Positions 6,309 to 64,000 of a stretch of DNA of 64,000 nucleotides are shown piece by piece. The notes under the pieces are model-generated. The model worked only from the letters and a program-made list of their open reading frames with translations. It searched no databases and was not told the DNA's origin. The number at the start of each line of letters is the position of its first letter. Position 1 is the first letter of the stretch. The stretch comes from an uncultured Gemmatimonadales bacterium (GTDB lineage: Bacteria; Gemmatimonadota; Gemmatimonadetes; Gemmatimonadales; GWC2-71-9), in contig CAWGED010000005.1 of NCBI GenBank assembly GCA_963821525.1, positions 320,001 to 384,000 on the forward strand. The letters are read 5' to 3'. Position numbers and translations under genes: made by a program.

Positions 6309-6310
6309 TT

Positions 6311-10357: not shown

Positions 10358-10369
10358 CGAGCGGAGCCG

Positions 10370-41889: not shown

Positions 41890-42070
41890 GAAGGCTCGTT
41901 CAAAATGTTGGTCGGTACGCCGCGTGCATTACTGCAAAGGAGAAACCGTGGGGATGGAGCGAGGGTTGCTGGTGTAACAGATGATGCCACATAGAATTGC
42001 CGCGCAGCTCCAAGGCTGCTAACGGCTCCGCGAGTGCTACGCGTTGATCCACCTGTAACGAGTCGTTGCA

Positions 42071-43409
42071 ATGCTTGCTTATTTGACATTATTGGCGATC
42101 CTCGCTTTCACGATTGTCGCCCAGGTTCGGCGTATGCACCGTCGCGACCGCGAGGCTCGAGCTGCGGCATCCCGCGGCGGCCTGGTCACGGAAGGACCCC
42201 GGGCACAACATCCGCACATCGACGTGGATCACTGCATAGGCTGTGGTGCGTGCGTTGATGCTTGCCCGGAGGGAGACGTACTCGCCGTCATCGGCGGGAA
42301 AGCCGCGATCGCCAAAGGACACAAATGCATCGGTCACGGGCTCTGCGCCGAGGCTTGCCCGGTCGGCGCGATCGAGATCGTCATGGCCGCGGCGAGCATC
42401 AGCGCAGATCTGCCGCAACTCAGCGCCGACTATGAAACCAACGTTCCCGGGTCTCTTCATCGCCGGAGAGCTGGGCGGACTTGCCCTGATCAAGAACGCG
42501 ATCAATCAGGGTCGTGACTGCGTGGACACGATCGCCCGGCGGGTGGCCCAGACCCGCGGACCTCGCTCAGTCGAGGTTCACGACGTCTGCATTGTCGGAG
42601 CCGGTCCGGGAGGGATCAGCGCTTCGCTCCGCGCCATTGAGCGCAAGCTCTCGTATGTCACGCTGGAACAGGACGAATTGGGCGGGACGGTAGCCAAGTA
42701 CCCTCGACAGAAACTGGTCCTGACGAGCCCGGTCGAATTGCCGCTCTATGGGAAGTTCAAGAAACTCGAGATCTCGAAAGAGGACCTGCTGGAGGTGTGG
42801 GCGGAGCTCTCGGACAAGGTGGGGTTGGTCGTCAACACTCGGGAGCGGGTGGACCACCTGATTCGAGAGCCGGACGGCACCTTCCGCATCGAGACCTCGA
42901 ACGGACGCTATCGGGCCCGCCACGTGATCCTGGCCCTGGGTCGCCGGGGCACGCCCCGCAAACTTGGTGTTCCCGGCGAGGAACTCTCCCATGTCATGTA
43001 CAGCCTGATCGATGCGGAGGCGTATACCGACAAGAGGATTCTGGTGGTGGGTGGAGGTGACAGCGCGGTGGAGGCCGCTATGGGTCTGGCTCACCAGCGA
43101 GGAAACCGCGTCGTCGTCTCCTATCGGGCTGCGGAGTTCACGCGGCTCAAGGAGCGGAATGCGCGAGGCCTGCAGGAAGCCGTGAAATCAGGCCGACTCG
43201 AGGTAGTGCTGAATTCCCTGCCGACCGAGATCAGCAGCGAAGCGGTGCTGCTTCGGATCGGCGAGGGTACTCGCCGGATCTCAGCCGATTATGTATGGAT
43301 CTTCATAGGGGGCACGCCCCCCAATCACTTCCTGGAAAAGGCCGGGGTCATCCTTGGGGCACGGGACCTGACCGCCGAGGCGGCGGCAGAGGCATTGCGG
43401 GTCGCCTGA
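42071..43409 (+). CDS. Membrane-anchored 2x[4Fe-4S] ferredoxin fused to thioredoxin-reductase-like FAD/NAD(P) oxidoreductase; frameshift near 42450
   Basis: TM helix; CIGCGACVDACP and CIGHGLCAEACP; TNVPGLFIAGELGG; VGAGPGG; VVGGGDSAVE. Confidence 0.88.
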
Positions 43410-43465
43410 CGCGCTGCGAAGGCTCCGCTCGCGGAGTATATTGGACGCAGCAATCACGTGGAGTC

Positions 43466-43891
43466 ATGATGAAACCGGGACACAAATTCCTACTGGGCGC
43501 CGCCATCATCGTTGGCGCCGTTGCCTTGCTGATGATCGAAGGGGTCAAGGAGTTTGGTCAGTATTCCCTCACACCGACCGAACTTGCCGCCAAGACGGCC
43601 GCCGATTCCTCGTTCTACAACCTCGGCCTGAAGATGAACGCCAAAGTGGTTCCCGGAACGATCAAGCGGGACCCGGCGTCTCAGACCATCGATTTCGAGG
43701 TGACCGACGGCAGTCACACCTATCCTGTGAGTTATCACGGGCTGGCGCCCGACACCTTCACCGACCAGCAGGATATCGAAGTGGTCGTCGAGGGCCGGCT
43801 GGGGCGGGATGGGGTGTTCCGCGCCACGACACTGCTGGCCAAGTGCGGCTCGCGCTACTCCGGCAAGTACGCGGAGGGAAAGAAGGTGTAG
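43466..43891 (+). CDS. ccmE: Cytochrome c maturation heme chaperone CcmE (CxxxY type)
   Basis: N-terminal TM, V.YHG..PDTF, VVVEG..., LLAKCGSRY. Confidence 0.88.
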   Translation: MMKPGHKFLLGAAIIVGAVALLMIEGVKEFGQYSLTPTELAAKTAADSSFYNLGLKMNAKVVPGTIKRDPASQTIDFEVTDGSHTYPVSYHGLAPDTFTDQQDIEVVVEGRLGRDGVFRATTLLAKCGSRYSGKYAEGKKV

Positions 43892-44277: not shown

Positions 44278-46623
44278 ATGAGACGGGTCGACCGTAGGAC
44301 GTTCCTCAAGAGGCTTGGGGTCGTTTCAGCGGCCACCGCCGCCGCTGGCGCCGTTCCCGGCATGGTGTTCCCCACGGGTGGTATCCTCCCGCACGGCGCC
44401 CAAACCGGCCCAGTCTGGAAGAAGACACCGTGCCGCCTTTGCGGCGTCGGCTGCGGATTACTGATAGCGATCGAGAACGGACGCGCAGTGGCCGTAAAGG
44501 GCGACCCTGACTCCCCGGTGAGCAAAGGGCTGGCCTGTGTGAAGGGCTATAACTCCGTGCAGGCGCTCTACGGGCGGGACCGGCTCGCGCACGCCATGGT
44601 CCGGCGCGACGGTGGGCTGGTGGAGGCTTCCCTCAACGAGACGTTCGACCTGGTGGCGCGCAGGCTCCGCGAGACCGTCGAGAAGCACGGCAAGAACAGC
44701 GTCGCCATCTACGGCTCGGCCCAGTGGACCATCCCGGATGCCTACATCGCGTCGAAGCTGTTCAAGGGAGCGCTGGGAACCAACAACGTGGAGACCAGCT
44801 CGCGCCTTTACGCCGGAAGCGCGATGGCCGGCCTCCAGAGCAGCTTCGGCCTCGACGGTGGGATCGGCTGCTACGAGGACATCGACCACGCCGACGTCTT
44901 CGTGTTGTGGGACGTCAATCTGGCGGAAACCGATCCGGTTCTCTTCTCTCGCATGCTGGACCGCCGGCGGGTGAACCCCGCCGTCCGGATCATCGAGGTC
45001 GCAACCCGCACCACGCGCACCAGTTACGCCGTCGACCAGTCTCTGCTGCACGCGCCGCATGCCGCGGCGGCGATCGCCAACGGCATCTGCAACGAAATCG
45101 TGGCCCGCAAATGGGTGCAGCAGGAGTTCGTCGCCCAGCACGTCGCCTTCAAACGGGGGAGGGCGAACATAGGTGACGGTCTGGCCGACGACCCTCTGGT
45201 TACGGAAGACGCCACCGACAGCACTTGGAGAGAGTACGTAGCGTTTCTCGCGGACTACGAGCCGGAGCGAGCCCAGGAATTGTCCGGCGTTTCGGCGGCG
45301 AGCATTCGCTGGCTGGCGTCCCTCTACGGCGACCCGCTGCGCAAGGTGATGTCGGTCTGGGGCCGAGAGGTGAACCAGGACGTGCGCGGCACCTGGATGA
45401 ACAACCTGCTCTACAACATCCATCTGCTGGTGGGGAAGGTCGCCTCGCCAGGGAATAGCCCCTTCGCCACCACGGGCCAGCCGAGCGGCGGGAGCGCGGT
45501 GAACGACGCGGGCAGCTTGACGCACACTCTGCCGCGCGGGGTGGTACAGAACGAAGAGGATCGCCGCCGGGCGTCGGAGATCTGGGGCGTCCCGGTGGAC
45601 AGGATCGATGCCCAGCCGACCGCCCCTTTGCTGGCAATGTTCCGCCAGCTGGAACGGGGCGACATCCGCTTTCTCTGGATCCTGGCCACCGATCCGATGG
45701 TCAGCCTGCCGAATTTGGACCGTTATCGTCAGGCGGCAACCAAGGGCGACCGCTTCATCGTGGTCTCGGAGGCGTATCCGACTCCTACGACGGATGTGGC
45801 GGACGTCGTCCTCCCCGCGGCGATGTGGCTTGAGCGCGAGGGGATCTACGCGAACGTCGAGCGCCGGGCGCAGCACTTCGAGCGGATGGTAGCGCCTCCC
45901 GGTGAGGCCACCGGCGACGCTTGGCAGATGATCGAGGTCGCCCGCCGTCTCGGCTTCGAGAAGCTGTTCCCCTACCAGCCGGGTGGCCACGTCGAGCAGA
46001 TCTGGGAGGAGTACCGCCGCTTTCATCAGGAACCGCAAGACGCGCTGCCCGCCACCTCCGAGCTCCGCGCGAACTCCGGCGTGATGTGGCCTTACGTGGG
46101 CGGCCGCGAGACGCGGTGGCGCTACAACTCCGCTTACGATCCGGCGGCCGATGGCACCCACGGCGCCTTCGATTTCTACGGCCATGCGGACCATCGTGCC
46201 TGGATCTGGCTCAGACCCTACGAGCCTCCGGCGGAGTTTCCAGGCGGCGAGTATCCATTCTGGCTCACGACGGGCGCCGTACTCGAGCATTGGGGTGCGG
46301 GCTCGATGACCCAACGCATTCCGACGTTGCATCACGCGCTCCCTCATGCCTACGTCGAGGTCAATCGCGAGGACGCAAGCGATCTGGGCATTCGGAACCG
46401 CGAGACCATCCGCCTGGTGAGCCGCCGCGGCTCGATCGAGCTCGAGGCCCGCATCGACTATCGTTCCCAACCGCCGCGTGGGCAGGTCTTTGTTCCGTCG
46501 TTCGACGAGGCGCGGCCGGTGAATCGGCTCACGCTCGATGCGTGCTGTCCGCTATCGGGCCAGCCCGATTCCAGCAAGTGTGCGGTTCGGGTGGAGCGAC
46601 TGACGCCGCGGAGCGGCACATGA
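44278..46623 (+). CDS. NapA-like (periplasmic nitrate reductase family) molybdopterin-oxidoreductase-fold protein with atypical active site
   Basis: Tat signal RRTFLK; CRLCGVGC...CVKG [4Fe-4S]; NapA-like GSAQWTI, GCYEDID, PGNSPF..TGQPS, EYPFWLTTG, KCAVRV; Mo-ligand position reads RLYAGSA. Confidence 0.88.
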   Translation: MRRVDRRTFLKRLGVVSAATAAAGAVPGMVFPTGGILPHGAQTGPVWKKTPCRLCGVGCGLLIAIENGRAVAVKGDPDSPVSKGLACVKGYNSVQALYGRDRLAHAMVRRDGGLVEASLNETFDLVARRLRETVEKHGKNSVAIYGSAQWTIPDAYIASKLFKGALGTNNVETSSRLYAGSAMAGLQSSFGLDGGIGCYEDIDHADVFVLWDVNLAETDPVLFSRMLDRRRVNPAVRIIEVATRTTRTSYAVDQSLLHAPHAAAAIANGICNEIVARKWVQQEFVAQHVAFKRGRANIGDGLADDPLVTEDATDSTWREYVAFLADYEPERAQELSGVSAASIRWLASLYGDPLRKVMSVWGREVNQDVRGTWMNNLLYNIHLLVGKVASPGNSPFATTGQPSGGSAVNDAGSLTHTLPRGVVQNEEDRRRASEIWGVPVDRIDAQPTAPLLAMFRQLERGDIRFLWILATDPMVSLPNLDRYRQAATKGDRFIVVSEAYPTPTTDVADVVLPAAMWLEREGIYANVERRAQHFERMVAPPGEATGDAWQMIEVARRLGFEKLFPYQPGGHVEQIWEEYRRFHQEPQDALPATSELRANSGVMWPYVGGRETRWRYNSAYDPAADGTHGAFDFYGHADHRAWIWLRPYEPPAEFPGGEYPFWLTTGAVLEHWGAGSMTQRIPTLHHALPHAYVEVNREDASDLGIRNRETIRLVSRRGSIELEARIDYRSQPPRGQVFVPSFDEARPVNRLTLDACCPLSGQPDSSKCAVRVERLTPRSGT

Positions 46624-47438
46624 GCTCCCCCGACCGGCACCCGGCCGCACTCGTCTTGGGCCTGTTCATGGTCGGCTCGGCCGTCACCGCCGCGGCCGCG
46701 TTGAGCGTCGCGGTGAAACGTGCTGCCGCCGGTCGGGAGCCGGTGCCCGCCCCCATCGCCGTCAAGATGGTGGCGCCACCCGATGAGCCGATCCGCGCCG
46801 AGGCGCAGGTGTTCCGCACAACTCCCGCCATCCTGGCGATCGAGCCCTCTGCCCGCCGGGAACGGTCGGCTCACCCGCGCACACTGAAGACGGTTCGCTT
46901 CCTGCGCGCCTTTCCGGGAGCCCCACCGCGGATTCCCCACGCCCTCACGCCTGAGGAATTCCGCACCGACGCCTGCAAGACCTGCCACGAGCGAGGTGGC
47001 TTCTCGCAGCGGTTTGACGCCTACGTGCCAGTGACGCCGCATCCCGAGCGGGGCATCTGTCTCCAGTGCCACGCGGGCGAGGACTCGCTCATGGGAGTGG
47101 CGATTCCCATCGCAAACCCGAACGCGAGGTGTCCGCAGTGCCACGGTCCGAGCGGTGGCCCCCCACGCGCAGATGCTACACTGACCTGGCCCACGACGGT
47201 TTGGCCGCAGGTGCCGCGGACAACGCCCGACCAAGATCCCCCCCCGATTCCGCACAGTCTGCAGTTCAGGGAGAATTGCCTCACCTGCCATTCCGGGCCT
47301 TCCGCCGTCGCTGAAATCCGGACCAAACACCCGGAGCGGGTCAACTGCCGTCAGTGCCATGTCGCGCTCGATCCGGAGGCGGAGCCGTTCGCCCGCCTGC
47401 CGCAGGACGTCGCTGCCGGGGACGGGAGTACGCCATGA
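46620..47438 (+). CDS. NapB-like cytochrome c, doubled, 5 hemes
   Basis: Two PPxIPH motifs; CKTCH, CLQCH, CPQCH, CLTCH, CRQCH; N-terminal TM/signal. Confidence 0.85.
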   Translation: MSSPDRHPAALVLGLFMVGSAVTAAAALSVAVKRAAAGREPVPAPIAVKMVAPPDEPIRAEAQVFRTTPAILAIEPSARRERSAHPRTLKTVRFLRAFPGAPPRIPHALTPEEFRTDACKTCHERGGFSQRFDAYVPVTPHPERGICLQCHAGEDSLMGVAIPIANPNARCPQCHGPSGGPPRADATLTWPTTVWPQVPRTTPDQDPPPIPHSLQFRENCLTCHSGPSAVAEIRTKHPERVNCRQCHVALDPEAEPFARLPQDVAAGDGSTP

Positions 47439-48157
47439 GCCGGACCCGGGTTGCGACCGCGGTCGGGTGCCTCGCGGCAGCATGGCTGACGTCTGCCTGT
47501 CGCGAACGAGCCCATGCGGTGTGGGACGTCCCACCGCCCGGGGCGGTCAGCCAGGTCGACTCTGCGACGGCCGCCCTGAACGCGACTCTGGAGCCCGGCG
47601 TACTGGCAACGGTGCAGGCGGTGCCGGTCCAACGCTGGAAGGGACCGGGCAACGAGCCATTCGAAGTCGCGCTCCGCAGCGCGACTCCGGAGGCGGGACA
47701 CTCCCGAATGTTCGGCTCCATCACGCTGCCGATCGCGCTGCGTAGCCGGGCGGCGGCCATGAGTCAGTACCCCTGCACGTCATGCCACCAGGGCCGGAAG
47801 GTGGTCATGGCCAACAAGCGCATCAGCGACGCTCACAACAACATCAAGCCGGTGCACCCGGACCAGACCGGCGCCGTCTGCTCCACCTGCCACTCGGCCG
47901 ACGACGTCGAGCTGCTCACGCTCAAGAGCGGCGAGCACGCCACCCTGGACGAGAGCTATCGGCTGTGTGCGCAGTGCCACTTCGAGCAGGCGAAGGCGTG
48001 GGCCGGCGGCGGGCATGGGAAACGACTCGACGGCTGGGAGGGACGGCGGGTGGTCATGGCCTGCGCCGATTGCCACGACCCACACAATCCCGCTGTCCAG
48101 ACCCGCATCCCCTTCCGCGCGCCGGAACTCGAGCGAACCAGGAGCGCCGGCCCATGA
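47435..48157 (+). CDS. Tetraheme cytochrome c lipoprotein
   Basis: Lipobox LTSAC; CTSCH, CSTCH, CAQCH, CADCH. Confidence 0.85.
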   Translation: MSRTRVATAVGCLAAAWLTSACRERAHAVWDVPPPGAVSQVDSATAALNATLEPGVLATVQAVPVQRWKGPGNEPFEVALRSATPEAGHSRMFGSITLPIALRSRAAAMSQYPCTSCHQGRKVVMANKRISDAHNNIKPVHPDQTGAVCSTCHSADDVELLTLKSGEHATLDESYRLCAQCHFEQAKAWAGGGHGKRLDGWEGRRVVMACADCHDPHNPAVQTRIPFRAPELERTRSAGP

Positions 48158-49128
48158 GCGATGACGGCACCCCCCAGATGCCGGAGCGCGCCGACGGCAC
48201 CGTGCTGCAGAAGCGGGTCGATCGGCGGGAAGCGCTGGGCCTCCTGGTTGGCGGCCTGGCCGCCGGCGCTGCCGCGGTGGGCGCGTGTACCCCGCTCACC
48301 GCGGCGACGCCCGAGGAGCGCGAGCTCAAGCTCTTAGCCTGGCGGGAGTACATCAAGGGCAATTACCACTTCATGACGGAGGAGGAGCGGGCGGAGACGA
48401 TCGCTCGTCTCGAGCGCCTCGCGAAGCTGCAGCGCGGCGTGGACGTGACTATCCAGTCCACCGGGGCACAGCCCGGCGTGATGTTCGGCTACGCCTTCAA
48501 TATTTCGAAGTGCAAGGGGTTCCGGAACTGCGTCGAGGCCTGCATCAACGAGAACAATCTCGATCGGCGGGCGGCGACGCAGTACATCCGCATCTTCGAG
48601 ATGGAGGACGGCGAAGTCGACCTCGACCTCGCCGATGCGACCTTCCAGCACGAGGTGCCGGCCGAGGGCCACTTCTATCTCGGGACCCAGTGCTTCCAGT
48701 GCGCCGATCCCCCGTGTGTGAAGGTCTGCCCGGTGGGCGCCACCTGGCAGGAACCGGATGGCATCACGGTCATCGACTACGACTGGTGCATTGGGTGCCG
48801 CTATTGCATGGCCGCCTGTCCCTACTGGGCGCGGCGCTTCAACTGGAGCCAGCCGGAGGTCCCCCAAGAGGAAGTGAACCCCAACCAGCACTACCTGGGC
48901 AACCGCGCGCGCAAGAAGGGCGTGGTCGAGAAGTGCACCTTCTGCATCCACCGGACCCGGCAGGGCCGGTTGCCGGCCTGCGCCGAGGCCTGTCCCACAG
49001 GGGCGCGGGTCTTCGGCAACCTGCTGGATCCCGACTCCGAGATCCGCTGGGTGCTGGCGAACAAGCGAATTTTCCGGCTGAAGGAAGAACTGAAGACGGA
49101 GCCGCGTTTCTGGTACTTCACCGACTGA
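48154..49128 (+). CDS. NrfC/DsrO-like 4Fe-4S electron-transfer subunit, copy 1
   Basis: Tat-like RREALG; CKGFRNCVEAC, CFQCADPPCVKVCP, CIGCRYCMAACP, KCTFC..R...PACAEACP. Confidence 0.9.
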   Translation: MSDDGTPQMPERADGTVLQKRVDRREALGLLVGGLAAGAAAVGACTPLTAATPEERELKLLAWREYIKGNYHFMTEEERAETIARLERLAKLQRGVDVTIQSTGAQPGVMFGYAFNISKCKGFRNCVEACINENNLDRRAATQYIRIFEMEDGEVDLDLADATFQHEVPAEGHFYLGTQCFQCADPPCVKVCPVGATWQEPDGITVIDYDWCIGCRYCMAACPYWARRFNWSQPEVPQEEVNPNQHYLGNRARKKGVVEKCTFCIHRTRQGRLPACAEACPTGARVFGNLLDPDSEIRWVLANKRIFRLKEELKTEPRFWYFTD

Positions 49129-49135
49129 GGCGACC

Positions 49136-50430
49136 GTGCACCTGAAGCCATTCCTGCTCACAGCCCTAGACTCGGCGACCACCGGGGGCCGGCGCTACCA
49201 CCTCTGGATGGGGAGCCTGACGGCGATCATCCTCGTCGGGGCGTACGCGTATTCCCTCCAGCTGCGCTACGGACTCGGCGTCACGGGAATGAGCGATCAG
49301 GTGAGCTGGGGTCTTTACATCTCGAACTTCACCTTTCTCGTCGGCATGGCCGCGGCCGCCATGATGCTGGTGCTGCCGGCGTACATCCTGGACGACGTGG
49401 ACTTCGGCCGCGCGGTGCTGATGGCGGAAGGCGGTCGCCGTGGCGGCGCTGGTCATGTGCCCTCGGGTTCGTGGTGGTGGACATCGGCAACCCATTCGCC
49501 GGGTGGCACCTCGTGCCCGGCATCGGCTACCTGAACTGGCCGCGGTCGCTCCTGGCCTGGGACGTGATCGTGCTGAACGGGTACCTGGCGCTGAATCTGG
49601 CCATCCCGTTCTACATCCTCTACAGCCACTACTCCGGCCGTTCGCCGGCCAAGAACAAGTACCTCCCCTGGATGTACATCTCCGCCATGTGGGCGGTGAG
49701 CATTCACCTGGTCACGGCGTTCCTGCTGGCGGGCCTGCCCGCCCGGCCGTTCTGGAACACGGCGCTGCTGGGGCCCCGGTTCCTGGCCTCGGCCTTCACC
49801 GCGGGGCCGGCGTTCGTGCTCGCTGCTGCTCTGGTTCATCCGGCGGAAGACGAAGTACGCCATTGCCGATGGCGCCTTCTCGAAGCTCGCGCTGATCGCT
49901 GTCGCCGCGGCGCAGATCAACCTCGTGATGCTCATCTCCGAGCTGTTCTACGAGTTCTACTCGCCCACCCATCACGGCATCAACGCGCGGTATCTCTTCT
50001 TCGGCCTCGGCGGGCACCACGCCCTGGTGCCCTGGATCTGGACGGGGATCGGGCTGAATGTCCTGCGCGACCGTCGCCCTCATGATCCACCCGCTGCGGC
50101 GCAAATCCGCGCTGGCTGATGCCGGCCTGCGCCACGCTGTTCGTGGGCATCTGGATCGAGAAGGGGATCGGCCTGGTGATCCCCGGCTTCATTCCCTCGC
50201 CGCTGGGCGAGATCGTCGAGTACACGCCCACCTGGGTCGAGCTGTGCGTGACCGCCGGCATCTGGGCCCTGGGCCTGTTCGTGCTGACCGTCCTGGTGCG
50301 GGTGGCGCTGCCGATCGAGCTGGGGGATGTGCGCAGTCCGTACCTGGCGCAGGCGCCCGCCGCGCGGGCAGTCCGCCCGCGCGCGACCCGGGCGCGGCAC
50401 GAGGACGTCCGGCCAGTCCGGACCCGATGA
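49136..50430 (+). CDS. NrfD/DsrP-family membrane subunit, copy 1; frameshifted
   Basis: VSWGLYISNFTFLVG, DIGNP, SIHLVTAFL, PRFLASAF, EKGIGLVIPG, YTPTWVE across frames. Confidence 0.85.
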
Positions 50431-50475
50431 TCCGACGCTGGGCACTCCGCCGGCCGACTTTACTTCCACGAGGTG

Positions 50476-51361
50476 ATGGACATGACCAGACACTAGGCCA
50501 AACGACACCCGATACTCCTTCGCCGCGCTCGCCGCGGGGCTGGTCGGGGCGGCCGGGCTGGCCGGCGGGCTGTTCCTCGCGGGGGTCGCGCCGCCGCTGG
50601 CCGCGGTGGCGGGCCTGGGATTGGGGCTGCTCCTCGCCGCCTCGATCAAGTACACCGACCAGTGGGAGAAGGCGGTCCTCCTGCGGCTCGGCCGCTACCG
50701 GGGCCTGCGAGGTCCCGGGTACTTCGCCATCGTGCCGATCCTCGATCGGGTGGCCTACACCATCGACCAGCGGATCCGGACCACGGCGTTCGGCGCCGAA
50801 TCGTGCCTGACCCGCGACACGGTGCCGGTCAACGTCGACGCCATCGCCTTCTGGATCGTGCGCGACGCCGAGCGCGCCGCGCTGGAGGTGCAGGACTACG
50901 ACGAGGCGGTCATCCTCTCGGCGCAGACCGCGCTGCGGGACGCCATCGGGAAGCACGATCTCGCGGAGCTGATCCAGTCCCGGGTGGAACTGGGCCACGG
51001 ACTCAAGGTGGCGCTGGAGCAGAAGATGGCGAACTGGGGGATCCAGGTGCAGTCGGTGGAGATCCGGGACGTCATCATCCCGGCCGCGCTCGAGGACGCC
51101 ATGTCGCGCCAGGCCCAGGCCGAGCGGGAGCGCCAGGCCCGCATCATCCTGGGCACTGCGGAAACCGAGATCGCCCACAAGTTCGTCGAGGCCGCGGCCG
51201 CCTACCGCGACCACCCCGAAGCCATGAACCTGCGGGCCATGAACATGCTCTACGAGAGCATCGTCAAGCGCGGCTCGCTCATGGTGGTGCCCTCAGGCCT
51301 GGCCGACTCCCTGAACGTCCCATCCCTGATGGGCGTGTCAGGGGCACCGAAGAGCCTGTAA
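50476..51361 (+). CDS. SPFH/stomatin (band 7) protein, copy 1; +1 indel near 50494, shorter C-terminus
   Basis: QWEKAVLLRLG, LTRDTVPVNVDA, AQTALRDAIG, VEIRDV, QAQAERERQA. Confidence 0.88.
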
Positions 51362-51440
51362 CCCGGAAGGGAGGCGCAGGACCCCAGATGCACAACTGCC
51401 CCTTCCGCCCTGAACTGGAGCGTACCAGGAGCCACGGCCC

Positions 51441-52420
51441 ATGAGTGACAACCGCATCCCCGAGATGCCCGAGAGCGCCGACGACGGCACCGTGCTGCAG
51501 AAGCGGGTCGATCGCCGGGATGCGCTGGGCCTCCTGCTCGGCGGCCTGGCCGCCGGCGCTGCCGCGGTGGCCGCGTGTACCCCGCTCACCGCGGCGACGC
51601 CCGAGGAGCGCGAGCTCAAACTGCTCGAATGGGAACAGTTCACCCAGAAGCACTATCGCCGGATGACCGAGGAGGAGCGCGCAGAGACCATCCAGCGGCT
51701 CGAGCGCCTCGCCAAGCTGCTCCATAACCAGGACGTCACCATCGCCACTACCAATGCATTGCCGGGAGTCCTCTTCGGCTACGCCTTCAACATCTCGAAG
51801 TGCAAGGGCTACCGGCGCTGCGTCGAGGCCTGCATCAACGAGAACAACCTGGACCGCAAAGCGGACACGCAGTACATCCGGATCTTCGAGAACGGAACAC
51901 GGCGTGGTCAATCTCAACGATGCCGATGCGACCTATCCAACACGAGGTGCCGGCCGAGGGCCACTTCTACCTCGGGACCCAGTGCTTCCAGTGCGCCAAC
52001 CCGCCCTGCGTCCCGGTCTGCCCGGTGGGCGCCACCTGGCAGGAGCCCGATGGCATCGTGGTGATCGACTACAACTGGTGCGTCGGATGCCGGGCCTGCA
52101 TGGCCGCTTGCCCCTACTGGGCGCGGCGCTTCAACTGGGACGTGCCCGAGGTGCCCAACGAGGAAGTGAACCCCAATCAACACTACCTCGGGAATCGTGC
52201 CCGCAAACAGGGATGCGTCGAGAAGTGCACCTTCTGCATCCACCGGACCCGGCAGGGCCGGTTGCCGGCCTGCGTCGAGGCCTGTCCCACCGGGGCGCGG
52301 GTCTTCGGCAACCTGTTGGATCCCGATTCCGAGATTCGTTGGGTGCTCGCAAACAAGCAGGTCTTCCGTCTGAAGGAAGAGCTCGCGACGGAACCGCGCT
52401 TCTGGTACTTCATCGACTGA
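51441..52420 (+). CDS. NrfC/DsrO-like 4Fe-4S subunit, copy 2; frameshifts at about 51890-51940
   Basis: RRDALG; CKGYRRCVEAC, CFQCANPPC, CVGCRACMAACP, KCTFC. Confidence 0.88.
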
Positions 52421-52427
52421 GGCGACC

Positions 52428-53721
52428 GTGCATCTACGAGCCTTCCTGTTGAGCGCGCTGCGCTCCGTGACCTCCGGCGATCGCCGCTACCATCTCTGGA
52501 TGGGGAGCCTGACGGCGATCATGCTGGTCGGGGGCTATGCCTACCTCGTCCAGGCCACCCACGGGCTCGTCGTCACGGGGATGAACGACCATGTGAGTTG
52601 GGGACTGTACATCTCCAACATGGCGTTCCTCGTGGGGGTGGCGGCCGCGGCGGTGATCCTGGTGATGCCGGCGTATGTCCTGCAGGACGTCGACTTCAGC
52701 CAGGCCGTCCTCATCGCCGAGGGGGTCGCGGTGTCCGCCCTGGTCATGTGCCTCAGCTTCGTCACGGCCAACAGTCCGGGCTTTCCCTGGAAGTGGTGGC
52801 GCCTCACGCCGGTCATCGGACTGCTAAACTGGCCCAGCTCGATGCTGGCATGGGACGTCATTGCCCTGAACGGCTACCTGGTGCTCAACCTCACCATCCC
52901 GTTCTACATCCTCTACAGCCACTTCACCGGACGCGAGCCGGAGAAGAAGAAGTACGTGCCGTTCATTTACCTCTCGGTCGTCTGGGCGGTGAGCATTCAC
53001 CTGATTACCGCGTTTCTTTCGCGGCCCCACCGTCCCGCCCCCTGTGGAACTCGCCGCTGCTTGGGCCCCGCTTCCTGGCCTCGGCCTTCACGGCCGGCCC
53101 CGCGTTCATGATCCTGTTGCTCGGGTTTATCCGGTCGACCAGCCAAGTACCCCATTTCGGACATGGCCATCTCGAAACTGGCCACCGCCACCACCGTGGC
53201 GGCGCAGATCAATCTCGTGATGCTCTTTTCCGAGCTGGTTTACGAGTTCTACTTTCCCACGCATCACAGCATCAGCGCGCGATATCTCTTCTTCGGCCTC
53301 GGCGAGCATCATGCGCTGGTGCCGTGGATCAGGACCGCGGATCACCCTCAACGTCGTGGCGACGTGGTCGCTCATGATCCACCCGCTGCGGCGTAACCCG
53401 CGCTGGCTGATGCCGGCCTGCGCCACGCTGTTCGTCGGCATCTGGGTCGAGAAGGGGATCGGCCTGGTGATCCCGGGCTTCATTCCCTCGCCGCTGGGCG
53501 AGATCGTCGAGTACACCCCCACCTGGGTCGAGCTGTGCGTGACCGCCGGCATCTGGGCCTTGGGCCTGTTCGTCCTGACCGTCCTGGTGCGGGTGGCGCT
53601 TCCGATCGAGCTGGGGCATGTGCGCAGTCCCTATCTGGAGCAGGGGCCCGCCCCGCGGGCAGTCCGCCCGCGCGCGACCCGGGTGCGGCACGAGGACGTC
53701 CGGCCGGTCCGGACCCGATGA
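52428..53721 (+). CDS. NrfD/DsrP-family membrane subunit, copy 2; frameshifted
   Basis: VSWGLYISN, SIHLITAFL, PRFLASAF, EKGIGLVIPG across frames. Confidence 0.85.
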
Positions 53722-53766
53722 TACGACGCTGGGCACTCCGCCAGCCGACTTTACTTCCACGAGGTG

Positions 53767-54753
53767 ATGGCCATGACCAGACATAGAGCAAACGACACCC
53801 GGTACTCCTTCGCCGCGCTCGCCGCGGGGCTGGTGGGGGCGGCCGGGCTGGCCGGCGGACTGTTCCTCGCGGGGATCGCGCCGCCGCTGGCCGCGGTGGC
53901 GGGCCTGGGACTGGGGGTGCTCCTCGCCGCCGCGATCAAGTACACCGACCAGTGGGAGAAGGCGGTCCTCCTGCGGCTGGGCCGCTATCGGGGCCTGCGA
54001 GGTCCCGGGTACTTCGCCGTCGTCCCGATCCTCGATCGGGTGGCGTACACCATCGACCAGCGGATCCGGACCACGGCGTTCGGCGCCGAATCCTGCCTGA
54101 CCCGCGACACGGTGCCGGTGAACGTCGACGCCATCGCGTTCTGGATCGTGCGCGACGCCGAGCGCGCCGCGCTGGAGGTGCAGGACTACGACGAGGCGGT
54201 CGTCCTCTCGGCGCAGACCGCGCTGCGGGACGCCATCGGGAAGCACGATCTCGCGGAGCTGATCCAGTCCCGGGTGGAGCTGGGCCACGGGCTCAAGGTG
54301 GCGCTGGAACAGAAGATGGCGAATTGGGGGATCCAGGTGCAGTCGGTCGAGATCCGCGACGTCATCATCCCGGCCGCGCTCGAGGATGCCATGTCGCGCC
54401 AGGCCCAGGCCGAACGGGAACGCCAGGCCCGCATCATCCTGGGCACGGCGGAAACCGAGATCGCCCACAAGTTCGTCGAGGCCGCGGACGCCTACCGCGA
54501 CCACCCCGCAGCCATGAACCTGCGCGCGATGAACATGCTCTACGAGAGCATCGTCAAGCGCGGCTCGCTCATGGTGGTGCCGTCAGGCCTGGCCGACTCG
54601 CTGAACGTCCCATCCCTGATGGGCGTGATGGGTGCCACCGGACTGCTGCCGCGGGATGGCGAGGCCAAGGCACCGGTGATGGGAGGTGGGGCGGCCACGG
54701 TCGCGCCTGGGGCGCCTGCCCCCAGCGCGGCGGAAACCGGGAAGGCGCACTAG
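53767..54753 (+). CDS. SPFH/stomatin (band 7) protein, copy 2
   Basis: Intact ORF with SPFH motifs; GAGGTG RBS. Confidence 0.92.
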   Translation: MAMTRHRANDTRYSFAALAAGLVGAAGLAGGLFLAGIAPPLAAVAGLGLGVLLAAAIKYTDQWEKAVLLRLGRYRGLRGPGYFAVVPILDRVAYTIDQRIRTTAFGAESCLTRDTVPVNVDAIAFWIVRDAERAALEVQDYDEAVVLSAQTALRDAIGKHDLAELIQSRVELGHGLKVALEQKMANWGIQVQSVEIRDVIIPAALEDAMSRQAQAERERQARIILGTAETEIAHKFVEAADAYRDHPAAMNLRAMNMLYESIVKRGSLMVVPSGLADSLNVPSLMGVMGATGLLPRDGEAKAPVMGGGAATVAPGAPAPSAAETGKAH

Positions 54754-54770: not shown

Positions 54771-56193
54771 TTGACTGCTCCGGAATAGTATTCCCATGGC
54801 AGGCGGCGCAGGTCTGGGGGTTCTTGCGCTTCATCCGCTCGGCATCGAACCCCGGCCCGTGCGGATTGAAGCTGCGGCCGCTCTGGGCCGAGTGACACGC
54901 CAGGCAGTCCCGCTCGGAGTGGCAGGCGACGCAGGTCTCGATGTTCTGCCGTGCGGCGGTGCCGTGATTGAGGAGGAAGACACCGCTGGCGTCATGGTAT
55001 CCCGGCTGCAATTTGCCGGGCGACACCAGGCCGGCCTGCTGATGGCAGGTGACACAGAATGCGGCCTGATTGTGGCACTCCGCGCACTCGGCCTGCCGAT
55101 TGAAGGCGGCGGCGGGATGCCGGGTCAGGAATCCAGCCGGGTGGTAGTTGCCCGCTGCTCCTGCGTTCGGACGGTGGCATTCCAGGCACTCGGCGCGCTC
55201 GTGGCAGGCGCTGCAGGTGCCCGGCGATGAGCCGGCGAGCGGGCCATGCTTGTCCACGAAATCGGCCGAGTGGGATGCAGGCCGGCCCCGTTCGATGCGC
55301 GCACCGATCCCTCGTCCCGGTCCACTGGCCGGAAGCAGCAGGACCACGTTGGGCGGGGCGCGATGGCAGGCCATGCAGCTCTCCTGCGTGTGGCAAAAGG
55401 CGCAACTTCCCGGGTCCTTTTTGGCATTCCCCCCGTGCTGCGAGAGAAACCGGCCCTCCTGGTGGGAGGCCGGCGCCTCTAGCTCGGCCTTGATCGCCAG
55501 CGAGCGGGGATCAACTGCCAGAGCCTGGATCGCCTTGACTTCGGGCGCGTTGACGTGGCACTGAACGCAGAAGTCCCGCGCATGGCAGATGGAACAGCTC
55601 AGTGTGCTGCGCTCCGCCTGGTCGCCATGACCCTTGGAAGAGAGGAACGCCGTGTCATCGTGCGACGCGGGCTTCTCGAACTTCGCCACCCGCGCCTCCG
55701 GCAGGGCCGTTGCCTCAGCCAGCGGGAAATGGCAGGTGCCGCAAGCGGTGTCGGGGGCGGAGAAATGCGCCGTTCGGATCCCGTGGCAGTCGAGGCACTG
55801 GGCTGAAATGGTGCGCCGGACGGTCAACCAGCTAGCCCCCGAGGGGATGTGGCAGGCAGGGCAAGCGAGGGCGGAATCGGCCGGGAGCTTCTCGCCTGAC
55901 TCCCGCGCATGCTCGGCGTGGGTGAAGCGGAAGTTCGAGGGATGAGCCGGGGGTGGTGACCAGTCCACCTTCTTCTCGATCGAACCGTCATGGCAGACGG
56001 CGCAGGACTCCGGAGAGGGATAGACTGGGCGTCCAGTTTCGGTGATGCCGGCGTGACATCCCTGGCATTCCGGAAAGACCTTGCGGTGCTTCTCGTGGTC
56101 GAAGACGTCGCGGTCCTGGCGGAGCACTGCGCTGCCGAAGGCGCCGAGCAGGATCACGAGGCCCGCGGCAAGTGGGATGCTAGGGAGCCTCAT
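54771..56193 (-). CDS. Periplasmic 16-heme cytochrome c of conduit 2 (true stop probably lost by an indel near 54772)
   Basis: Signal MRLPSIPLAAG...; 16 CxxCH, many in CxxCH-x4-CxxCH pairs; read-through to 54583 would overlap the SPFH gene convergently. Confidence 0.87.
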
Positions 56194-57673
56194 CGCCGCC
56201 CTTCTCGCCGGACAGCGGGCGGGAGGGGCAGCCGGTCGGCGCTCGAGCCGAAGAGCCAAGAGAGGGTGGCGCTTACCCGAGTCTGGGACCAGTTGATGGT
56301 GGAGGCATCGGGCCGCTTGCGATCCTCGTCGTATCGGGTTGCCCCGAGGCCGAGGCGTAGGCGTTCGGTCGCTCGGAGATCGATGGAGAGACCATACCAG
56401 GTCAGCGCGGGGTCCTCTACCCGGTACTCGAGCGGTCGAACCAGGTGGCCTGCCTTGCGCCGTGAGAGTCATGGCGTGGGTCGGCCGCACGCTGAGGCTC
56501 CCATCCACGCCTTGGGAGGCAGCGCCGGGTCCGAATTCGGCCTGATAACCCCCGTCAATACTTACGGCTGAGGAGATGCTGTACCCCGCCCCCGCGTTCC
56601 AGCGCCAGCCTTCGGTTTCCTCTGTGAGCAGCGGTGTTTCCGCTTCGGCGTCCGCGTACCAGTAACGCTCCCCGCCACCGCGGAGCGTCAGGCCGCGCAC
56701 CGGTGACACCCACAGCGAGCCGTTTACGGCGGAGTACGGCACCGGACTGAACACGCCCCAGAGGCTCCAGAGGTCGAAGTAGGGACGGTAGCGCCTGATG
56801 CCTACTGCCCCGCCGAACCGCGTCTGGCTGTGGCGGAGGGTCAGGTCCGCGTTGCCCCACCAGCCCCAGGCGAGATCGTAGTCGGCGCCCCCGGTGAGGC
56901 TCCAGCCGGTGAGGGGACGAATGGTCGCCGAAAGGGCCATCCGCTCCGAAACGAAGTTCCGAGTGTCCCGGTCGACCTCGCGCTCATAGTCCAAGCCGCG
57001 CGTCCACCGTGCGGCTCTGCCATTCGACGGCGCCCCCGGCAAGGAGCTGCCGTGACGGGGGCTGGAAGTCGTCCAGGGGGTTCAGCGCGTCACTGGTCAC
57101 GGGGAGGGCGCTGCCCCTCGCCAATCCAAGACCCACATAGCCGATCGCGGTCAGCCCTTGCTTCGGGAAGCGATAGGCCAGGCGACCTCCGTCGTAACCG
57201 TAGTACCCGAGGCGCCCGCGCTCGATCTGCCGTCCGAGTCGTGCGGTGAAGCGATCCGCGGCGTACTCGCCGTACCCCTCCACCAACTGCACGGCGGGAT
57301 CGGTCCCCGGCCAGACGTCAGAGCTGCTGAGATCCGCGCCGACCCGGGCATTGGCATGCAGGCTGAGGCCGTGCACGCCGAAACCCCAGGCCGTGAGGTC
57401 GGCGCTGGTCATGAACGGGCCGCCATGGAGGATCGGGCCCGCGCGGAAGAAGTAGCAGTAGGTTAGCCCGGTGCAGCTGACAGCGTAGCCGTCCGGAGTC
57501 TCGGGGCCGCCGCTGGGGCCGGTCACGACCTGACCGGCCAGGATGCTGTCTTTTTGGACGCCCCGATACGAAACGCTTTGTACTCGCGAATCGAGCCGGA
57601 CCAGGTATTCTTGCGCCCTCCCTACGGCAGGGGCCGCGAGCAGCAGCAGGGCCCATCCCAGCCCGGCTTTCAT
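56190..57673 (-). CDS. Outer-membrane beta-barrel porin of conduit 2; frameshifted near 57000 and 56460
   Basis: Signal MKAGLGWALLLLAAPAVGRA; RLGRQ, GYDGG, amphipathic strands; ATGA overlaps with cytochromes on both sides. Confidence 0.78.
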
Positions 57674-59633: not shown

Positions 59634-59714
59634 GTCGGTATAGAAAATACCCGCCCCGGCAAAAGGAACATCGCCGGGGCGGGTGAGACTCCGCGTCACC
59701 AAGGCGCGCCCCAA

Positions 59715-63621: not shown

Positions 63622-64000
63622 GAGGCCACCGCTCCGGTTCCCAGTGCGGCGAGAGCGGTTTCCACCGCGGAAACCTGCGGTTCGAGCTGATTGGGCGCAC
63701 TGTCCCGCAGCGCGAAGAGTGCCTGGCGGGTGGGTTCGAAATCGAGTCCGACGGCGGTGGCGCCGCCTTCCAGGAGGGTCCCGGCTCTCCGGTGAAGTGC
63801 CACCAGCAACCGTATCAATTGATAGGTCTTCGGAATCGGCGAGCTGGCATCGTTCGGGTCGTAGGCGCTTTGACCCAGCACCGCCTCCCGGGCCAGTCGG
63901 GCGAGATCGAGCAGCACCCGATCCGAATCCTGAAGTGCTTCCGGCCCGACCAGCGCCGCGATCTCCCGCAACTCCTGTCCGCGCTGCAACAGGGTGAGCA
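63618..64000 (-). CDS. ntpA: V/A-type ATP synthase subunit A, C-terminal part
   Basis: LLQR..EL.EI..LVGPEAL...D...RE..LGQSAYDPNDA; immediately upstream of subunit B. Confidence 0.88.
   Translation of the reverse strand, partial: LTLLQRGQELREIAALVGPEALQDSDRVLLDLARLAREAVLGQSAYDPNDASSPIPKTYQLIRLLVALHRRAGTLLEGGATAVGLDFEPTRQALFALRDSAPNQLEPQVSAVETALAALGTGAVAS

Follow-up and report, generated by a model that had tools for sequence, protein, structure and literature searches.

The locus described here raises the question of what a NapA homologue without the molybdenum-ligating cysteine does in an operon of electron-transfer genes. It is found in an uncultured Gemmatimonadales bacterium (assembly GCA_963821525.1, here G000; 81% complete), on contig CAWGED010000005.1, positions 320,001-384,000 of the forward strand; this whole stretch of 64,000 nt is called the window. 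NapA* denotes the operon's homologue lacking the Mo-ligand Cys, and Cys-type denotes relatives that keep it.

Gene content and assembly quality

All nine genes of the co-oriented operon reported in an earlier note were confirmed in place on the + strand (Table 1). ATGA overlaps couple genes 1-4 (napA*, pentaheme, tetraheme, FeS1). NrfD1, FeS2, NrfD2 and the start of SPFH1 are frameshifted in the assembly, and so are 6/8 of the flanking cytochrome, porin and FAD genes compared. These frameshifts are likely consensus errors, because relatives carry intact copies of the affected genes and single-base indels at 50065, 50105, 51936 and 53017 separate the window from contigs assembled from public runs. 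Heme counts of both flanking clusters were read from intact copies in genome G015.

The two FeS-NrfD-SPFH copies show 85.6% identity in DNA and are therefore paralogues; an assembly duplication was rejected. The remnant of the tetraheme gene marks the left end of this tandem duplication, which was not seen in Cys-type operons.

Table 1. Features of the NapA* locus (positions in the window)
Feature	Position	Strand	Description
Upstream divergent cluster	36073..41922	-	membrane protein, 23-heme, 16-heme, probable outer-membrane protein
Ferredoxin-FAD (thioredoxin-reductase-like) gene and ccmE	42071..43891	+	occupy the place of napD in Cys-type operons
napA*	44278..46623	+	781 aa, NapA-derived, Tat-exported, twin-Arg signal
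Tyr178 codon TAC	44809..44811	+	Mo-ligand position; counterpart of Cys140 in D. desulfuricans NapA
Pentaheme cytochrome c	46620..47438	+	5 CxxCH; N-terminal hydrophobic segment
Tetraheme cytochrome c	47435..48157	+	4 CxxCH; probable lipoprotein, no named family
FeS1	48154..49128	+	DsrO/NrfC-like; twin-Arg, probable lipoprotein
NrfD1 (type 1)	49136..50430	+	NrfD/DsrP-like membrane subunit; Asp115 at quinol-site position; frameshifted here
SPFH1/stomatin	~50473..51361	+	start frameshifted; C-terminus shorter
Remnant of tetraheme gene 3' end	51388..51444	+	18 codons; overlaps FeS2 start
FeS2 (type 2)	51441..52420	+	one frameshift near 51936
NrfD2 (type 2)	52428..53721	+	NrfD/DsrP-like; Asn at quinol-site Asp; frameshifted here
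SPFH2/stomatin	53764..54753	+	second stomatin copy
Downstream convergent conduit-like cluster	54781..61406	-	octaheme, 18-heme membrane-anchored, probable beta-barrel, 16-heme

Descent of NapA* and of its operon

As had been supposed, the large subunit derives from NapA and not from QrcB or ActB. It scored 744 bits against the NCBIfam NapA model (cut-off 904; only NapA*, not its Cys-type relatives, was run against this model) and 68 bits against QrcB. A sequence search matched it to NapA with E=1e-185, NapA structures were the top Foldseek matches, and the tree nested NapA* within the Cys-type NapA clade.

The earlier note had proposed that the architecture may have arisen independently from NapAB. 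An origin together with NapA* does not hold, since the same gene order, with napD, already accompanies Cys-type NapA. Synteny searches revealed napD-napA-cytochrome-cytochrome-FeS-NrfD operons whose NapA is Cys-type; they occur in Gemmatimonadota and Bacteroidota as well as in a few further phyla, for example in Flammeovirga kamogawensis (NZ_CP076130.1, KM029_RS26130-26155), Flagellimonas and Tenacibaculum; we found no paper describing this Cys-type operon by name. The tree points to it as the direct ancestor of the NapA* operon. In this ancestor, the place of NapC/NapGH is taken by two cytochromes and a DsrOP-like pair of FeS and NrfD subunits. One Gemmatimonadales lineage (perhaps twice) would then have gained the stomatin, lost napD and finally lost the Mo site of NapA. 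A stomatin gene follows NrfD in 22/23 NapA* loci vs 1/22 Cys-type Gemmatimonadota loci, and ccmE/ccmF genes often adjoin the operon. One genome (G117) has the module beside a conduit with no napA in front; in another (G023) the downstream part lies at a contig start, with no match to NapA or the pentaheme cytochrome.

NapA* has lost the molybdenum ligand and much of the cofactor signature

Tyr178 replaces the Cys of the RxCMxSA site. Among the best 120 homologues the position is occupied by Y110/F5/H4/T1 and by Cys in 0/120, so Tyr178 is no sequencing error. Syntenic homologues thus do not all keep the Cys. In our alignment, 54 rows have C and the 37 non-Cys rows have Y30/H3/R2/S1/F1; five different residues at this site argue against a replacement ligand. 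The Met adjacent to the ligand position is also absent.

Cys-type relatives share 213 invariant sites, of which NapA* retained 180 and lost 33. Several of the lost residues are near-invariant in a distant comparison set of 91 Cys-bearing Nap/Nas/Fdh representatives (<40% identical), namely G212 (91/91), G364 (91/91), K766 (82/82), R667 (83/85), H673 (75/85), H219 (83/91), D263 (80/91) and R409 (76/83). The genome's own Sec-type Fdh retains G212, G364, R667 and K766. Across the NapA* clade R667, K766, G364, M363, D263 and F741 are now variable. In this family a conserved Arg/His connects both pterins (PMC10673323); position 667 may correspond to it. The substrate channel of C. jejuni NapA comprises Arg174, Asp191, Glu192, Arg463, Arg471 and His715 (PMC12769810); four of the six (Glu192, Arg463, Arg471, His715) are changed in NapA* and two are kept.

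NapA* keeps the Tat signal, the [4Fe-4S] ligands Cys52/55/59/87 and Lys89, whose equivalent in NapA connects FeS cluster and pterin (PMC12769810). The cysteines and Lys89 are retained in 114-120 of the best 120 homologues (Lys89 in 119/120), the remainder being unaligned. Other pocket residues persist: Q149 (119/120), N214 (118/120), E217 (120/120), Q401 (118/120) and N749 (110/120). Overall, conservation among the 120 homologues reaches 90% or more at 166/180 of the retained invariant sites. The losses are not enriched at the deepest sites (13/79 vs 20/134). At 18 of the 33 lost sites new residues, many of them polar, have become fixed (>=90%; among them Y178, D212, D219, H258, D368, H409 and D410), which could reflect a remodelled active site and not merely cavity filling. 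The whole clade lacks the Mo ligand along with a large share of the signature for cofactor and substrate.

The absence of napD from the window was borne out, and napD was also not found in the whole genome (81% complete). Comparing NapA* with Cys-type, napD is present in 0/33 vs 37/39 loci and in 1/42 vs 36/38 genomes; the Pfam NapD model detected it in 1/42 vs 25/38 genomes. The single NapA* genome with napD also has a canonical napA. Moco genes are indeed missing from the window, but moaA and moaC are present elsewhere in the genome and moaC occurs in 37/41 NapA* genomes, so this absence is uninformative. Genes resembling mobA were detected in 79/80 genomes searched, none above cut-off; with moaC this common, bis-MGD may therefore be available. 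No napC is named in the window; its absence may not strictly hold, because the N-terminus of the downstream 18-heme protein is weakly NapC/NirT-like.

From these residues we consider it likely that NapA* is devoid of Mo-bisPGD, probably a further loss of this cofactor in the DMSO reductase superfamily. The excerpt of PMC10100899 records three independent losses of Mo/W-bisPGD, none from NapA, for which it gives Cys as the ligand. Alternatively, NapA* could still bind Mo/W-bisPGD or a simpler pterin, ligand-free or with a Tyr/His nearby, act on a substrate other than nitrate and retain the ancestral quinol-cytochrome wire. Such a site has a precedent in AioA and IdrA, which bind Mo-bisPGD without a protein ligand (PMC10100899, excerpt), and it would fit the re-fixed sites, the persistence of Lys89 and the other pocket residues and the Moco genes of the genome. 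This alternative appears improbable given that the ligand position varies among Y, H, F, S, R and T, that G212, G364, R667 and K766 were lost though near-invariant across enzymes with different substrates, that napD is gone, and that one genome has no napA in front of the module.

The database label is a different matter. In JGI many of the homologues carry the name 'nitrate reductase NapA', and both the NapA fold and the descent from a nap operon agree with this name. However, a protein lacking the Mo-ligand Cys, the adjacent Met, four of six channel residues and napD is most improbable as an ordinary periplasmic nitrate reductase. Its NapA score below cut-off points the same way, with the reservation on Cys-type relatives given above, and nrfA differs weakly (6/42 NapA* vs 11/31 Cys-type Gemmatimonadota genomes). 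That NapA* does not reduce nitrate is, judged from these features, highly likely.

napA* is under purifying selection

Selection on napA* is purifying and not relaxed as in a decaying pseudogene: dN/dS is ~0.17 and, at ~0.17-0.20, equal to that of Cys-type NapA; the 7 closest pairs span 0.10-0.23, and at larger distances the values resemble those of the Cys-type group. Many genomes carry the gene as an uninterrupted reading frame of 781 codons. Some members (L097, L107/L108) display long branches and heavier decay.

NapA* might be a relic on its way out, kept by translational coupling and protein stability, with only the cytochrome-FeS-NrfD part mattering. The decayed members and the loci without a NapA match (G117, and G023 at its contig start) are compatible with this idea, but we judge it very unlikely in view of the dN/dS values shared with Cys-type NapA, the conserved 166/180 sites and the intact frames. 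Since NapA* has lost the Mo ligand and napD and is under purifying selection in an electron-transfer operon, it probably moves electrons and does not reduce nitrate, despite its label.

Cytochrome, FeS, NrfD and stomatin subunits

The pentaheme protein, described earlier as a NapB, contains two NapB-like units, each led by PPxIPH, plus a middle heme, but its Pfam NapB match (E=1.6e-4) is below cut-off. Every heme motif and distal His is retained; the Bacteroidota relatives have 4 hemes. The tetraheme protein has, in relatives, a Cys after a short hydrophobic leader, which agrees with its description as a lipoprotein (probable).

The FeS/NrfD pair had been regarded as Qrc-like. Profile searches instead identified it as DsrO/DsrP-like, with 371-391 bits for DsrP (cut-off 350), 39-56 bits for QrcD (cut-off 570) and 193 bits for the FeS subunit against DsrO (cut-off 200). 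The first cluster motif of FeS1 is without its second Cys, a trait shared by the readable rows of the NapA* and Cys-type groups, and possibly holds a [3Fe-4S] cluster. The quinol-site positions His139, Ser164 and Asp169 of ActC correspond to Asp (Asp115 in NrfD1), Ser and Asp in 59/59 type 1 NrfD rows. Type 2 NrfD has Asn at the His139 position in 9/9 rows and can occur alone.

Linkage to porin-cytochrome clusters

A porin-cytochrome cluster adjoins 22/25 NapA* loci vs 6/22 Cys-type loci; linked loci are kin, so these counts are not independent. The linkage takes four different arrangements, and in G031 conduit and operon are co-oriented, without napD. NapA* loci are tightly linked to porin-multiheme clusters, as the earlier note had seen here; the conduit is, however, far commoner (downstream conduit in 105/151 family genomes, NapA* in 17) and does not need the module. 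It possibly has its own NapC/NirT-like entry in the 18-heme protein (weak N-terminal match). The multiheme genes of the flanking clusters are clear. The barrel match is weak (Pfam OMP_b-brl, E=0.0017), the closest Atlas clusters that bear a name are those of outer-membrane barrels (0.92-0.93), and a profile search gave no match to the MtrB-type family. That the module feeds the conduits is plausible, though we infer it, and for their partnership the chances are about even.

Another possibility is that NapA* is Mo-free and the module is an extra alternative complex III serving soluble cytochromes and terminal oxidases, or that a new ligand or metal occupies the pocket with its re-fixed Asp, His and Tyr; the proximity of the conduit would then reflect shared cytochrome c maturation or regulation. 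The ccmE/ccmF neighbours, the several heme-copper oxidase subunit I genes of the genome, the presence of the conduit without the module in most family genomes and the newly fixed pocket residues favour such a role. It is nevertheless rather unlikely, as the genome already holds a separate Qrc/ACIII-like locus (G000:C19) and the linkage survives four rearrangements, including the fully co-oriented operon.

Proposed function and comparison with known systems

The reading we prefer, at roughly an even chance, is a derived Cys-type nap operon in which NapA*, free of Mo, would serve as an FeS cap for a wire from quinol to cytochromes. Against it speak the re-fixed and the persisting pocket residues, the lack of enrichment of losses at the deepest sites, the Moco genes, the ligand-free precedents AioA and IdrA, the wide occurrence of the conduit with its possible entry of its own, and the Qrc/ACIII-like locus and heme-copper oxidase genes of the genome. 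NrfD would oxidise (or reduce) quinone on the periplasmic side, and electrons would pass from the FeS subunit via the tetraheme lipoprotein to the pentaheme protein. Periplasmic multiheme cytochromes would receive (or supply) them, those of the linked porin-cytochrome cluster being the likeliest candidates. Carrying only its [4Fe-4S] cluster, NapA* may be retained as a folded protein that caps the pentaheme cytochrome or docks onto it, much as the Mo-free QrcB and ActB domains persist in their complexes, and the stomatin may organise the complex in the membrane. We infer complex formation as well as the path and direction of electrons.

A wider reading, which we hold only tentatively and consider doubtful, joins these parts: NapA* would be a further independent loss of Mo-bisPGD, possibly twice in Gemmatimonadota, turning a nitrate reductase into a new ACIII-convergent quinol:cytochrome complex on a conduit. 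If so, living intermediates persist (napD lost first, napA* last), the convergence extends to the Mo-free scaffold, to an FeS cluster with three Cys and to an NrfD pair with one member lacking the quinol-site acid, and common soil bacteria have their quinone pool wired to an undescribed porin-multiheme conduit.

NapAB/NapD systems (C. necator 3ML1, E. coli 2NYA, R. sphaeroides 1OGY, D. desulfuricans 2NAP, C. jejuni 9PXT) share with NapA* the sequence, fold, Tat signal, [4Fe-4S] motif, bridging Lys and an adjoining NapB-like cytochrome. In contrast to them, NapA* lacks the Mo-ligand Cys, many cofactor and channel residues and napD, its partner has five hemes, and quinol input is DsrOP-like instead of via NapC/NapGH. 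The Cys-type Bacteroidota/Gemmatimonadota operon has the same gene order and orthologous subunits but keeps Cys, cofactor residues and napD.

QrcABCD and ACIII are analogous in working, with a molybdopterin-fold protein that is Mo-free (in NapA* probably so, its sequence signature being lost), FeS, multiheme cytochromes and NrfD. Orthology to QrcABCD was rejected (bits/cut-off: QrcB 68/440, QrcC 154/400, QrcD 39-56/570). Unlike both, NapA* keeps the N-terminal FeS motif. It stems from NapA, whereas ActB groups with ArrA/ArxA (PMC10100899, excerpt); NapA* and FeS are separate genes with two cytochrome genes between them, whereas ActB has fused domains, and the operon has no ActD or ActE. A pair of NrfD paralogues with a changed quinol site in one of them recalls ActC/ActF, although the altered NrfD can stand alone here, unlike ActF. 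FhcB, Nqo3/NuoG and ActB are MopB members that keep the fold without Mo/W-bisPGD, as NapA* would if it is Mo-free.

No dsrM, dsrK or dsrAB was found among the locus genes or conserved neighbours. As in DsrJOP, a small lipoprotein cytochrome precedes FeS and an NrfD that passes the DsrP cut-off, but this cytochrome is tetraheme, not triheme, and the NrfD shares only 42-49% identity with the DsrP encoded by a true dsr operon from this family.

Identity of the large subunit and loss of the molybdenum site

The window corresponds to G000:C5:320001-384000. Its operon comprises nine genes on one strand, encoding the NapA homologue (781 aa, here NapA*), a pentaheme and a tetraheme cytochrome, and two sets of an FeS subunit, an NrfD membrane subunit and a stomatin (SPFH) protein. 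Its nearest loci lie in Gemmatimonadales MAGs at 92-96% identity.

Positions of the features described
Feature	Sequence	Coordinates
Nine-gene NapA* operon	window	44278-54753
napA*	window	44278-46623
Type 1 NrfD	window	49136-50430
Type 2 NrfD	window	52428-53721
Upstream multiheme/outer-membrane cluster	window	36073-41922
Downstream multiheme/outer-membrane cluster	window	54781-61406
Membrane-anchored ferredoxin and FAD thioredoxin-reductase-like (YpdA-like) gene	window	42071-43409
V/A-type ATPase genes	window	61589-63989
Stomatin gene upstream of napA*	L079	8303-9211
Operon with ketoacyl synthase gene in place of napA	L157 (G117:C31)	8603-13638
Second Cys-type napA clade	L114 (G008:C56)	9209-15476
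Lone canonical napD-napA	L110 (G075:C33)	6002-8618
[NiFe] uptake hydrogenase and hyp operon	L122 (G015:C6)	801-10754
NAD-linked formate dehydrogenase	L116 (G000:C19)	9849-11834
Apparent dsr region	L159 (G066:C3)	5558-13000

NapA* is a NapA by every comparison made: it scored 744 bits with the NCBIfam model for NapA and 68 with that for QrcB, and the best matches of a PDB search were the five solved NapAs, in agreement with Foldseek. In the alignment with D. desulfuricans NapA, Tyr178 of NapA* takes the position of Cys140, which binds Mo there. Among 91 distinct near-full-length sequences, the ligand position was Cys in 54 (Cys-type) and another residue in 37 (non-Cys: Y30, H3, R2, S1, F1). The earlier note had allowed that all homologues might keep the canonical RxCMxSA site; the best 120 of 2131 database matches to NapA* contained no Cys at the ligand (Y110, F5, H4, T1), which also rules out a sequencing error at this codon. 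Selenocysteine at the ligand, considered for some Cys-type relatives with an in-frame TGA, was ruled out since these keep the ligand Cys.

The loss extends well beyond the ligand. Cys-type sequences share 213 invariant sites; the non-Cys group retains 139 of these, has partly lost 41 and has lost 33, the losses including Met141, Glu156, Gly174, Met308, Gly309, Arg354, Arg617, His623 and Lys714 (D. desulfuricans numbering). To tell cofactor from substrate residues, we used a set of 91 distant representatives of Nap, Nas and Fdh that bear the Cys (out of 150 retrieved), in which G212, G364, K766, R667, H673, H219, D263 and R409 (NapA* numbering) are 88-100% conserved; all are lost in NapA*, and the Sec-type Fdh of the source genome (G000) itself retains G212, G364, R667 and K766. 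Going by their conservation and by what is known of NapA and FdhF structures, these lost sites (G212, G364, K766, R667 and others) probably contact bis-MGD. The available part of PMC10673323 describes a conserved Arg or His as the bridge between the pterins. Of six channel residues that the accessible text of PMC12769810 lists for the C. jejuni enzyme, NapA* has four changed.

Against a clean loss, Q149, N214, E217, Q401, N749 and the FeS-to-pterin Lys89 are kept. Lost sites are not in excess at depth (13/79 deep sites vs 20/134 others); at 18 of the 33 a new residue, often a polar one, has become fixed, and 15 are now variable. AlphaFold models of NapA* (pLDDT 73.7, pTM 0.71) and of a Cys-type control (74.6 and 0.74, same 60 sequences) were similar and are silent on the cofactor. 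A remodelled Mo/W enzyme, to which the kept residues point, is rather unlikely in view of the lost ligand and presumed cofactor contacts.

NapA* lacks defining traits of NapA (the Mo-ligand Cys, most of the channel residues and napD). That it is still a nitrate reductase, as its database name implies, is hardly credible; nrfA co-occurrence differs weakly (6 of 42 NapA* genomes vs 11 of 31 Cys-type Gemmatimonadota genomes). Public databases name these proteins 'nitrate reductase NapA' and NapA* occurs in 17 of 151 sampled genomes of the window's family. Nitrate reduction by Gemmatimonadales may therefore be overestimated when napA genes are counted. As far as the available parts of two Gemmatimonadota surveys go (PMC11316326, PMC10581226), napAB is scored as nitrate reduction and the ligand is not mentioned; those of PMC5317091 and PMC12300631 contribute nothing specific.

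Operon structure and assembly state

Genes 1-4 have intact reading frames with ATGA overlaps, and the assembly carries frameshifts in NrfD1, FeS2, NrfD2 and at the start of SPFH1. These are probably consensus errors, because contigs from public runs differ from the window by frame-changing single-base indels at four of these places. Eight flanking genes (for cytochromes, porins and an FAD protein) were checked against G015, a same-genus relative with intact copies, and six of them were also frameshifted.

The two FeS-NrfD-stomatin runs share 85.6% DNA identity, and an 18-codon remnant of the 3' end of the tetraheme gene precedes FeS2 and marks a tandem duplication. A duplication by assembly was ruled out by this divergence, by the two clades (types 1 and 2) into which the DsrP-like NrfD paralogues fall (type 2 support 100), and by the presence of the duplication in five further loci (L001, L011, L015, L043, L059).

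Origin and phylogeny

The earlier note had suggested that a Qrc/ACIII-like architecture may have arisen independently from NapAB. An origin of the gene order together with the Mo-free NapA is not supported: napA-cytochrome-cytochrome-FeS-NrfD also occurs with Cys-type NapA in Gemmatimonadota, Bacteroidota, Latescibacterota and Rhodothermota, and a Flammeovirga record has the same order annotated together with napD. The proposed derivation of the large subunit from NapA was borne out: in a tree computed without 49 diagnostic columns, the non-Cys sequences nested within the Gemmatimonadota Cys-type sequences, and a clade of the latter alone was rejected (p-AU 1e-4).

Trees and dN/dS excluded L109, exact duplicates and every locus whose open match fell short of near full length. 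The heavily frameshifted L001 and L024 were not used for the NrfD tree or the NrfD counts, nor was L009 (duplicate protein) used for linkage and genome counts; L072, whose ligand site is missing from its contig, was scored non-Cys by identity. Quick trees united all non-Cys sequences with a support of 87-89. In a careful tree the main non-Cys clade had a support of 100/99, and L079, with Ser at the ligand, paired outside it with a Cys-type sister at 99/99; the NrfD tree likewise separated L079 (support 94). A single non-Cys clade was not rejected (p-AU 0.088, bootstrap not fully settled). By this pairing, L079 may represent a second, independent loss of the Mo ligand. Its stomatin gene lies upstream of napA*, at the usual place of napD.

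Two Cys-type genomes near the non-Cys clade, G031 and G185 (locus L025), have a stomatin and no napD. A third genome, G117, has pentaheme, tetraheme, FeS, NrfD and stomatin genes with an unrelated gene at the napA position, and Cys-type napA on other contigs. These few genomes suggest that stomatin gain and napD loss preceded the loss of the Mo site, sometimes followed by loss of napA* itself. In G117 the replacing gene encodes a ketoacyl synthase, and a convergent conduit cluster with two octaheme genes is found at the same locus.

The most eroded NapA*, in L107 and L108 (genomes G098 and G028), carry Arg in place of the ligand, have deletions around residue 405 and sit on a long branch; the full operon is still present there. 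NapA* from MAGs titled Chloroflexota, Actinomycetota and Acidobacteriota (L012, L016, L042) branch among Gemmatimonadales, a placement that may reflect transfer or mis-binning. A second Cys-type napA clade of the same family (L114, L098-L105) has genes for Rieske protein, cytochrome b and octaheme cytochrome on one side and a tetraheme double-NapB gene on the other, and resembles the nap cluster linked to Rieske and cytochrome b genes in Caldithrix.

A literature search, with most subscription journals outside its coverage, turned up no report on a NapA without the Cys. The available part of PMC10100899 gives the NapA ligand as Cys and counts three losses of Mo/W-bisPGD (FhcB, Nqo3, ActB), and that of PMC8076601 has no Nap-linked NrfD complex among those listed. 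The nearest printed hint in the text available to us is a multiheme-FeS-NrfD cluster 3' of Nap genes in two MAGs, in one of them beside a porin-cytochrome complex (PMC10732223). A NapA lineage with a dismantled molybdenum site in an inherited Nap-DsrOP-like operon is real, conserved and apparently undescribed, and the literature seems to lack a description of the parent operon, in which a DsrOP-like module feeds Nap, as well. If true, this is a recent, well-sampled example of an enzyme becoming a cofactor-free subunit; close Cys-type sisters (~65% identical) and intermediates make a transition of the ActB/QrcB/Nqo3 type directly studiable, and the parent operon is experimentally accessible in cultured Bacteroidota.

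Selection, chaperone and cofactor genes

dN/dS (simple NG86; non-independent pairs, GC3 bias uncorrected) was 0.10-0.23 in seven non-Cys pairs with dS <0.5. Medians for non-Cys and Cys-type pairs were 0.195 (101 pairs) vs 0.212 (85 pairs) at dS 0.5-0.8, and 0.197 (272 pairs) vs 0.178 (168 pairs) at dS 0.8-1.2. NapA* therefore resembles Cys-type NapA and lacks the relaxed selection of a decaying pseudogene that the earlier note had considered; decay is ruled out as the main reading. A relic, with which the long branches and stronger erosion of some members would agree, is very unlikely given these ratios.

Using a profile made from Cys-type loci, with identity backed by Pfam, we found napD immediately upstream of napA in 37 of 39 Cys-type loci with enough flank vs none of 33 non-Cys loci. 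Genome-wide, napD was detected in 36/38 Cys-type vs 1/42 NapA* genomes (25/38 vs 1/42 with the Pfam model), many of these genomes being incomplete and all being kin. The sole NapA* genome with napD, G075, has a second, canonical napD-napA, which stands alone, lacking cytochrome or quinol partners; this NapA might borrow the module of the NapA* operon.

Moco synthesis is retained in NapA* genomes, and G000 carries moaA, moaC and a Sec-type Fdh. Its loss was dropped as evidence, since moaC was found in 37/41 NapA* vs 37/38 Cys-type genomes and mobA-like matches occurred everywhere, none above cut-off.

The membrane module

The earlier note had described a Qrc/ACIII-like module. The NapA* operon is a member of neither Qrc nor ACIII; by analogy, its complex may work like them. 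The operon fails QrcB, QrcC and QrcD membership, and its NrfD passes the DsrP cut-off instead: intact NrfD copies scored 371 and 391 with DsrP (cut-off 350) and 39-56 with QrcD (cut-off 570), and the FeS subunit 193 with DsrO (cut-off 200) and 154 with QrcC (cut-off 400). In the first cluster motif of the FeS subunit the second Cys is missing in readable sequences of both groups, a trait therefore ancestral to the module; the subunit may bind [3Fe-4S]. A stomatin gene follows NrfD in 22 of 23 NapA* loci vs 1 of 22 Cys-type Gemmatimonadota loci.

L159, from the same Gemmatimonadales family, has a DsrP 42-49% identical to the window NrfD, in what we take, from translations, to be a full dsrAB-dsrC-dsrMKJOP region.

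In an alignment with R. marinus ActC, Asp115 of NrfD corresponds to His139; opposite Ser164 and Asp169 stand a Ser and an Asp. In the available part of PMC8076601 these three ActC residues are listed for the quinol site, and substitution of the equivalent residue in PsrC and DmsC is reported to block quinol oxidation. The position of Asp115 is Asp in all 59 type 1 and Cys-type sequences and Asn in all nine type 2 sequences, a pair with one altered member that recalls ActC/ActF. An ActF-equivalent role of type 2 is weakened by its presence alone in all five single-copy genomes checked and by one public-run contig in which the tetraheme gene runs directly into FeS2.

Flanking multiheme clusters and proposed function

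Two unnamed multiheme/outer-membrane clusters flank the operon. The downstream cluster, as read in G015, comprises genes for cytochromes with 8, 18 and 16 hemes and for a protein of 493 aa; the upstream one has genes for cytochromes with 23 and 16 hemes and for a protein of 527 aa with terminal Phe. The beta-barrel assignment of the outer-membrane proteins is weak. The downstream barrel-like gene has no Pfam family, and the N-terminus of the 18-heme protein gave a weak NapC/NirT-like match (E 4e-5 to 0.011, below cut-off). This cluster possibly represents a conduit type that is characteristic of Gemmatimonadota and not yet described.

Of 25 NapA* loci with long flanks, 22 have genes of the downstream cluster next to them, vs 6 of 22 Cys-type Gemmatimonadota loci, and four arrangements occur; for porins alone the counts are 21/25 vs 5/32 over all Cys-type loci. 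Cluster and operon are co-oriented in G031. The link between conduit and NapA* is real but one-sided, because the barrel gene (105 of 151 family genomes) is far commoner than NapA* (17) or a close NrfD (25) and G000 has a QrcB/ActB-like gene (226 bits) adjoining an NrfD gene as well as several oxidase subunit I genes.

The most likely reading, in which we place about even confidence, is an electron wire between the quinol site and the linked-cluster cytochromes, capped by a Mo-free NapA*. Electrons would enter from or leave to the quinone pool at NrfD, in either direction, and pass through the FeS clusters, the tetraheme and the pentaheme to the periplasmic multiheme cytochromes of the linked cluster, with NapA* seated on the pentaheme as a [4Fe-4S] cap. 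A Mo-free complex that passes electrons to other acceptors, or a NapA* pocket that binds a new ligand, is improbable by comparison; the one-sided link and the re-fixed polar residues would fit it, and the adjacency of conduit and operon favours the wire. In this abundant, barely cultured phylum the operon hints at a respiratory route that is still unstudied and may involve extracellular electron transfer.

In some of the NapA* loci the ferredoxin/FAD gene is found together with the 23-heme cluster. In G015 the hydrogenase operon, identified from translations, lies just past the downstream conduit, a position taken in the window by the ATPase genes. The formate dehydrogenase of G000 is of the selenocysteine type, with an in-frame TGA at the ligand.
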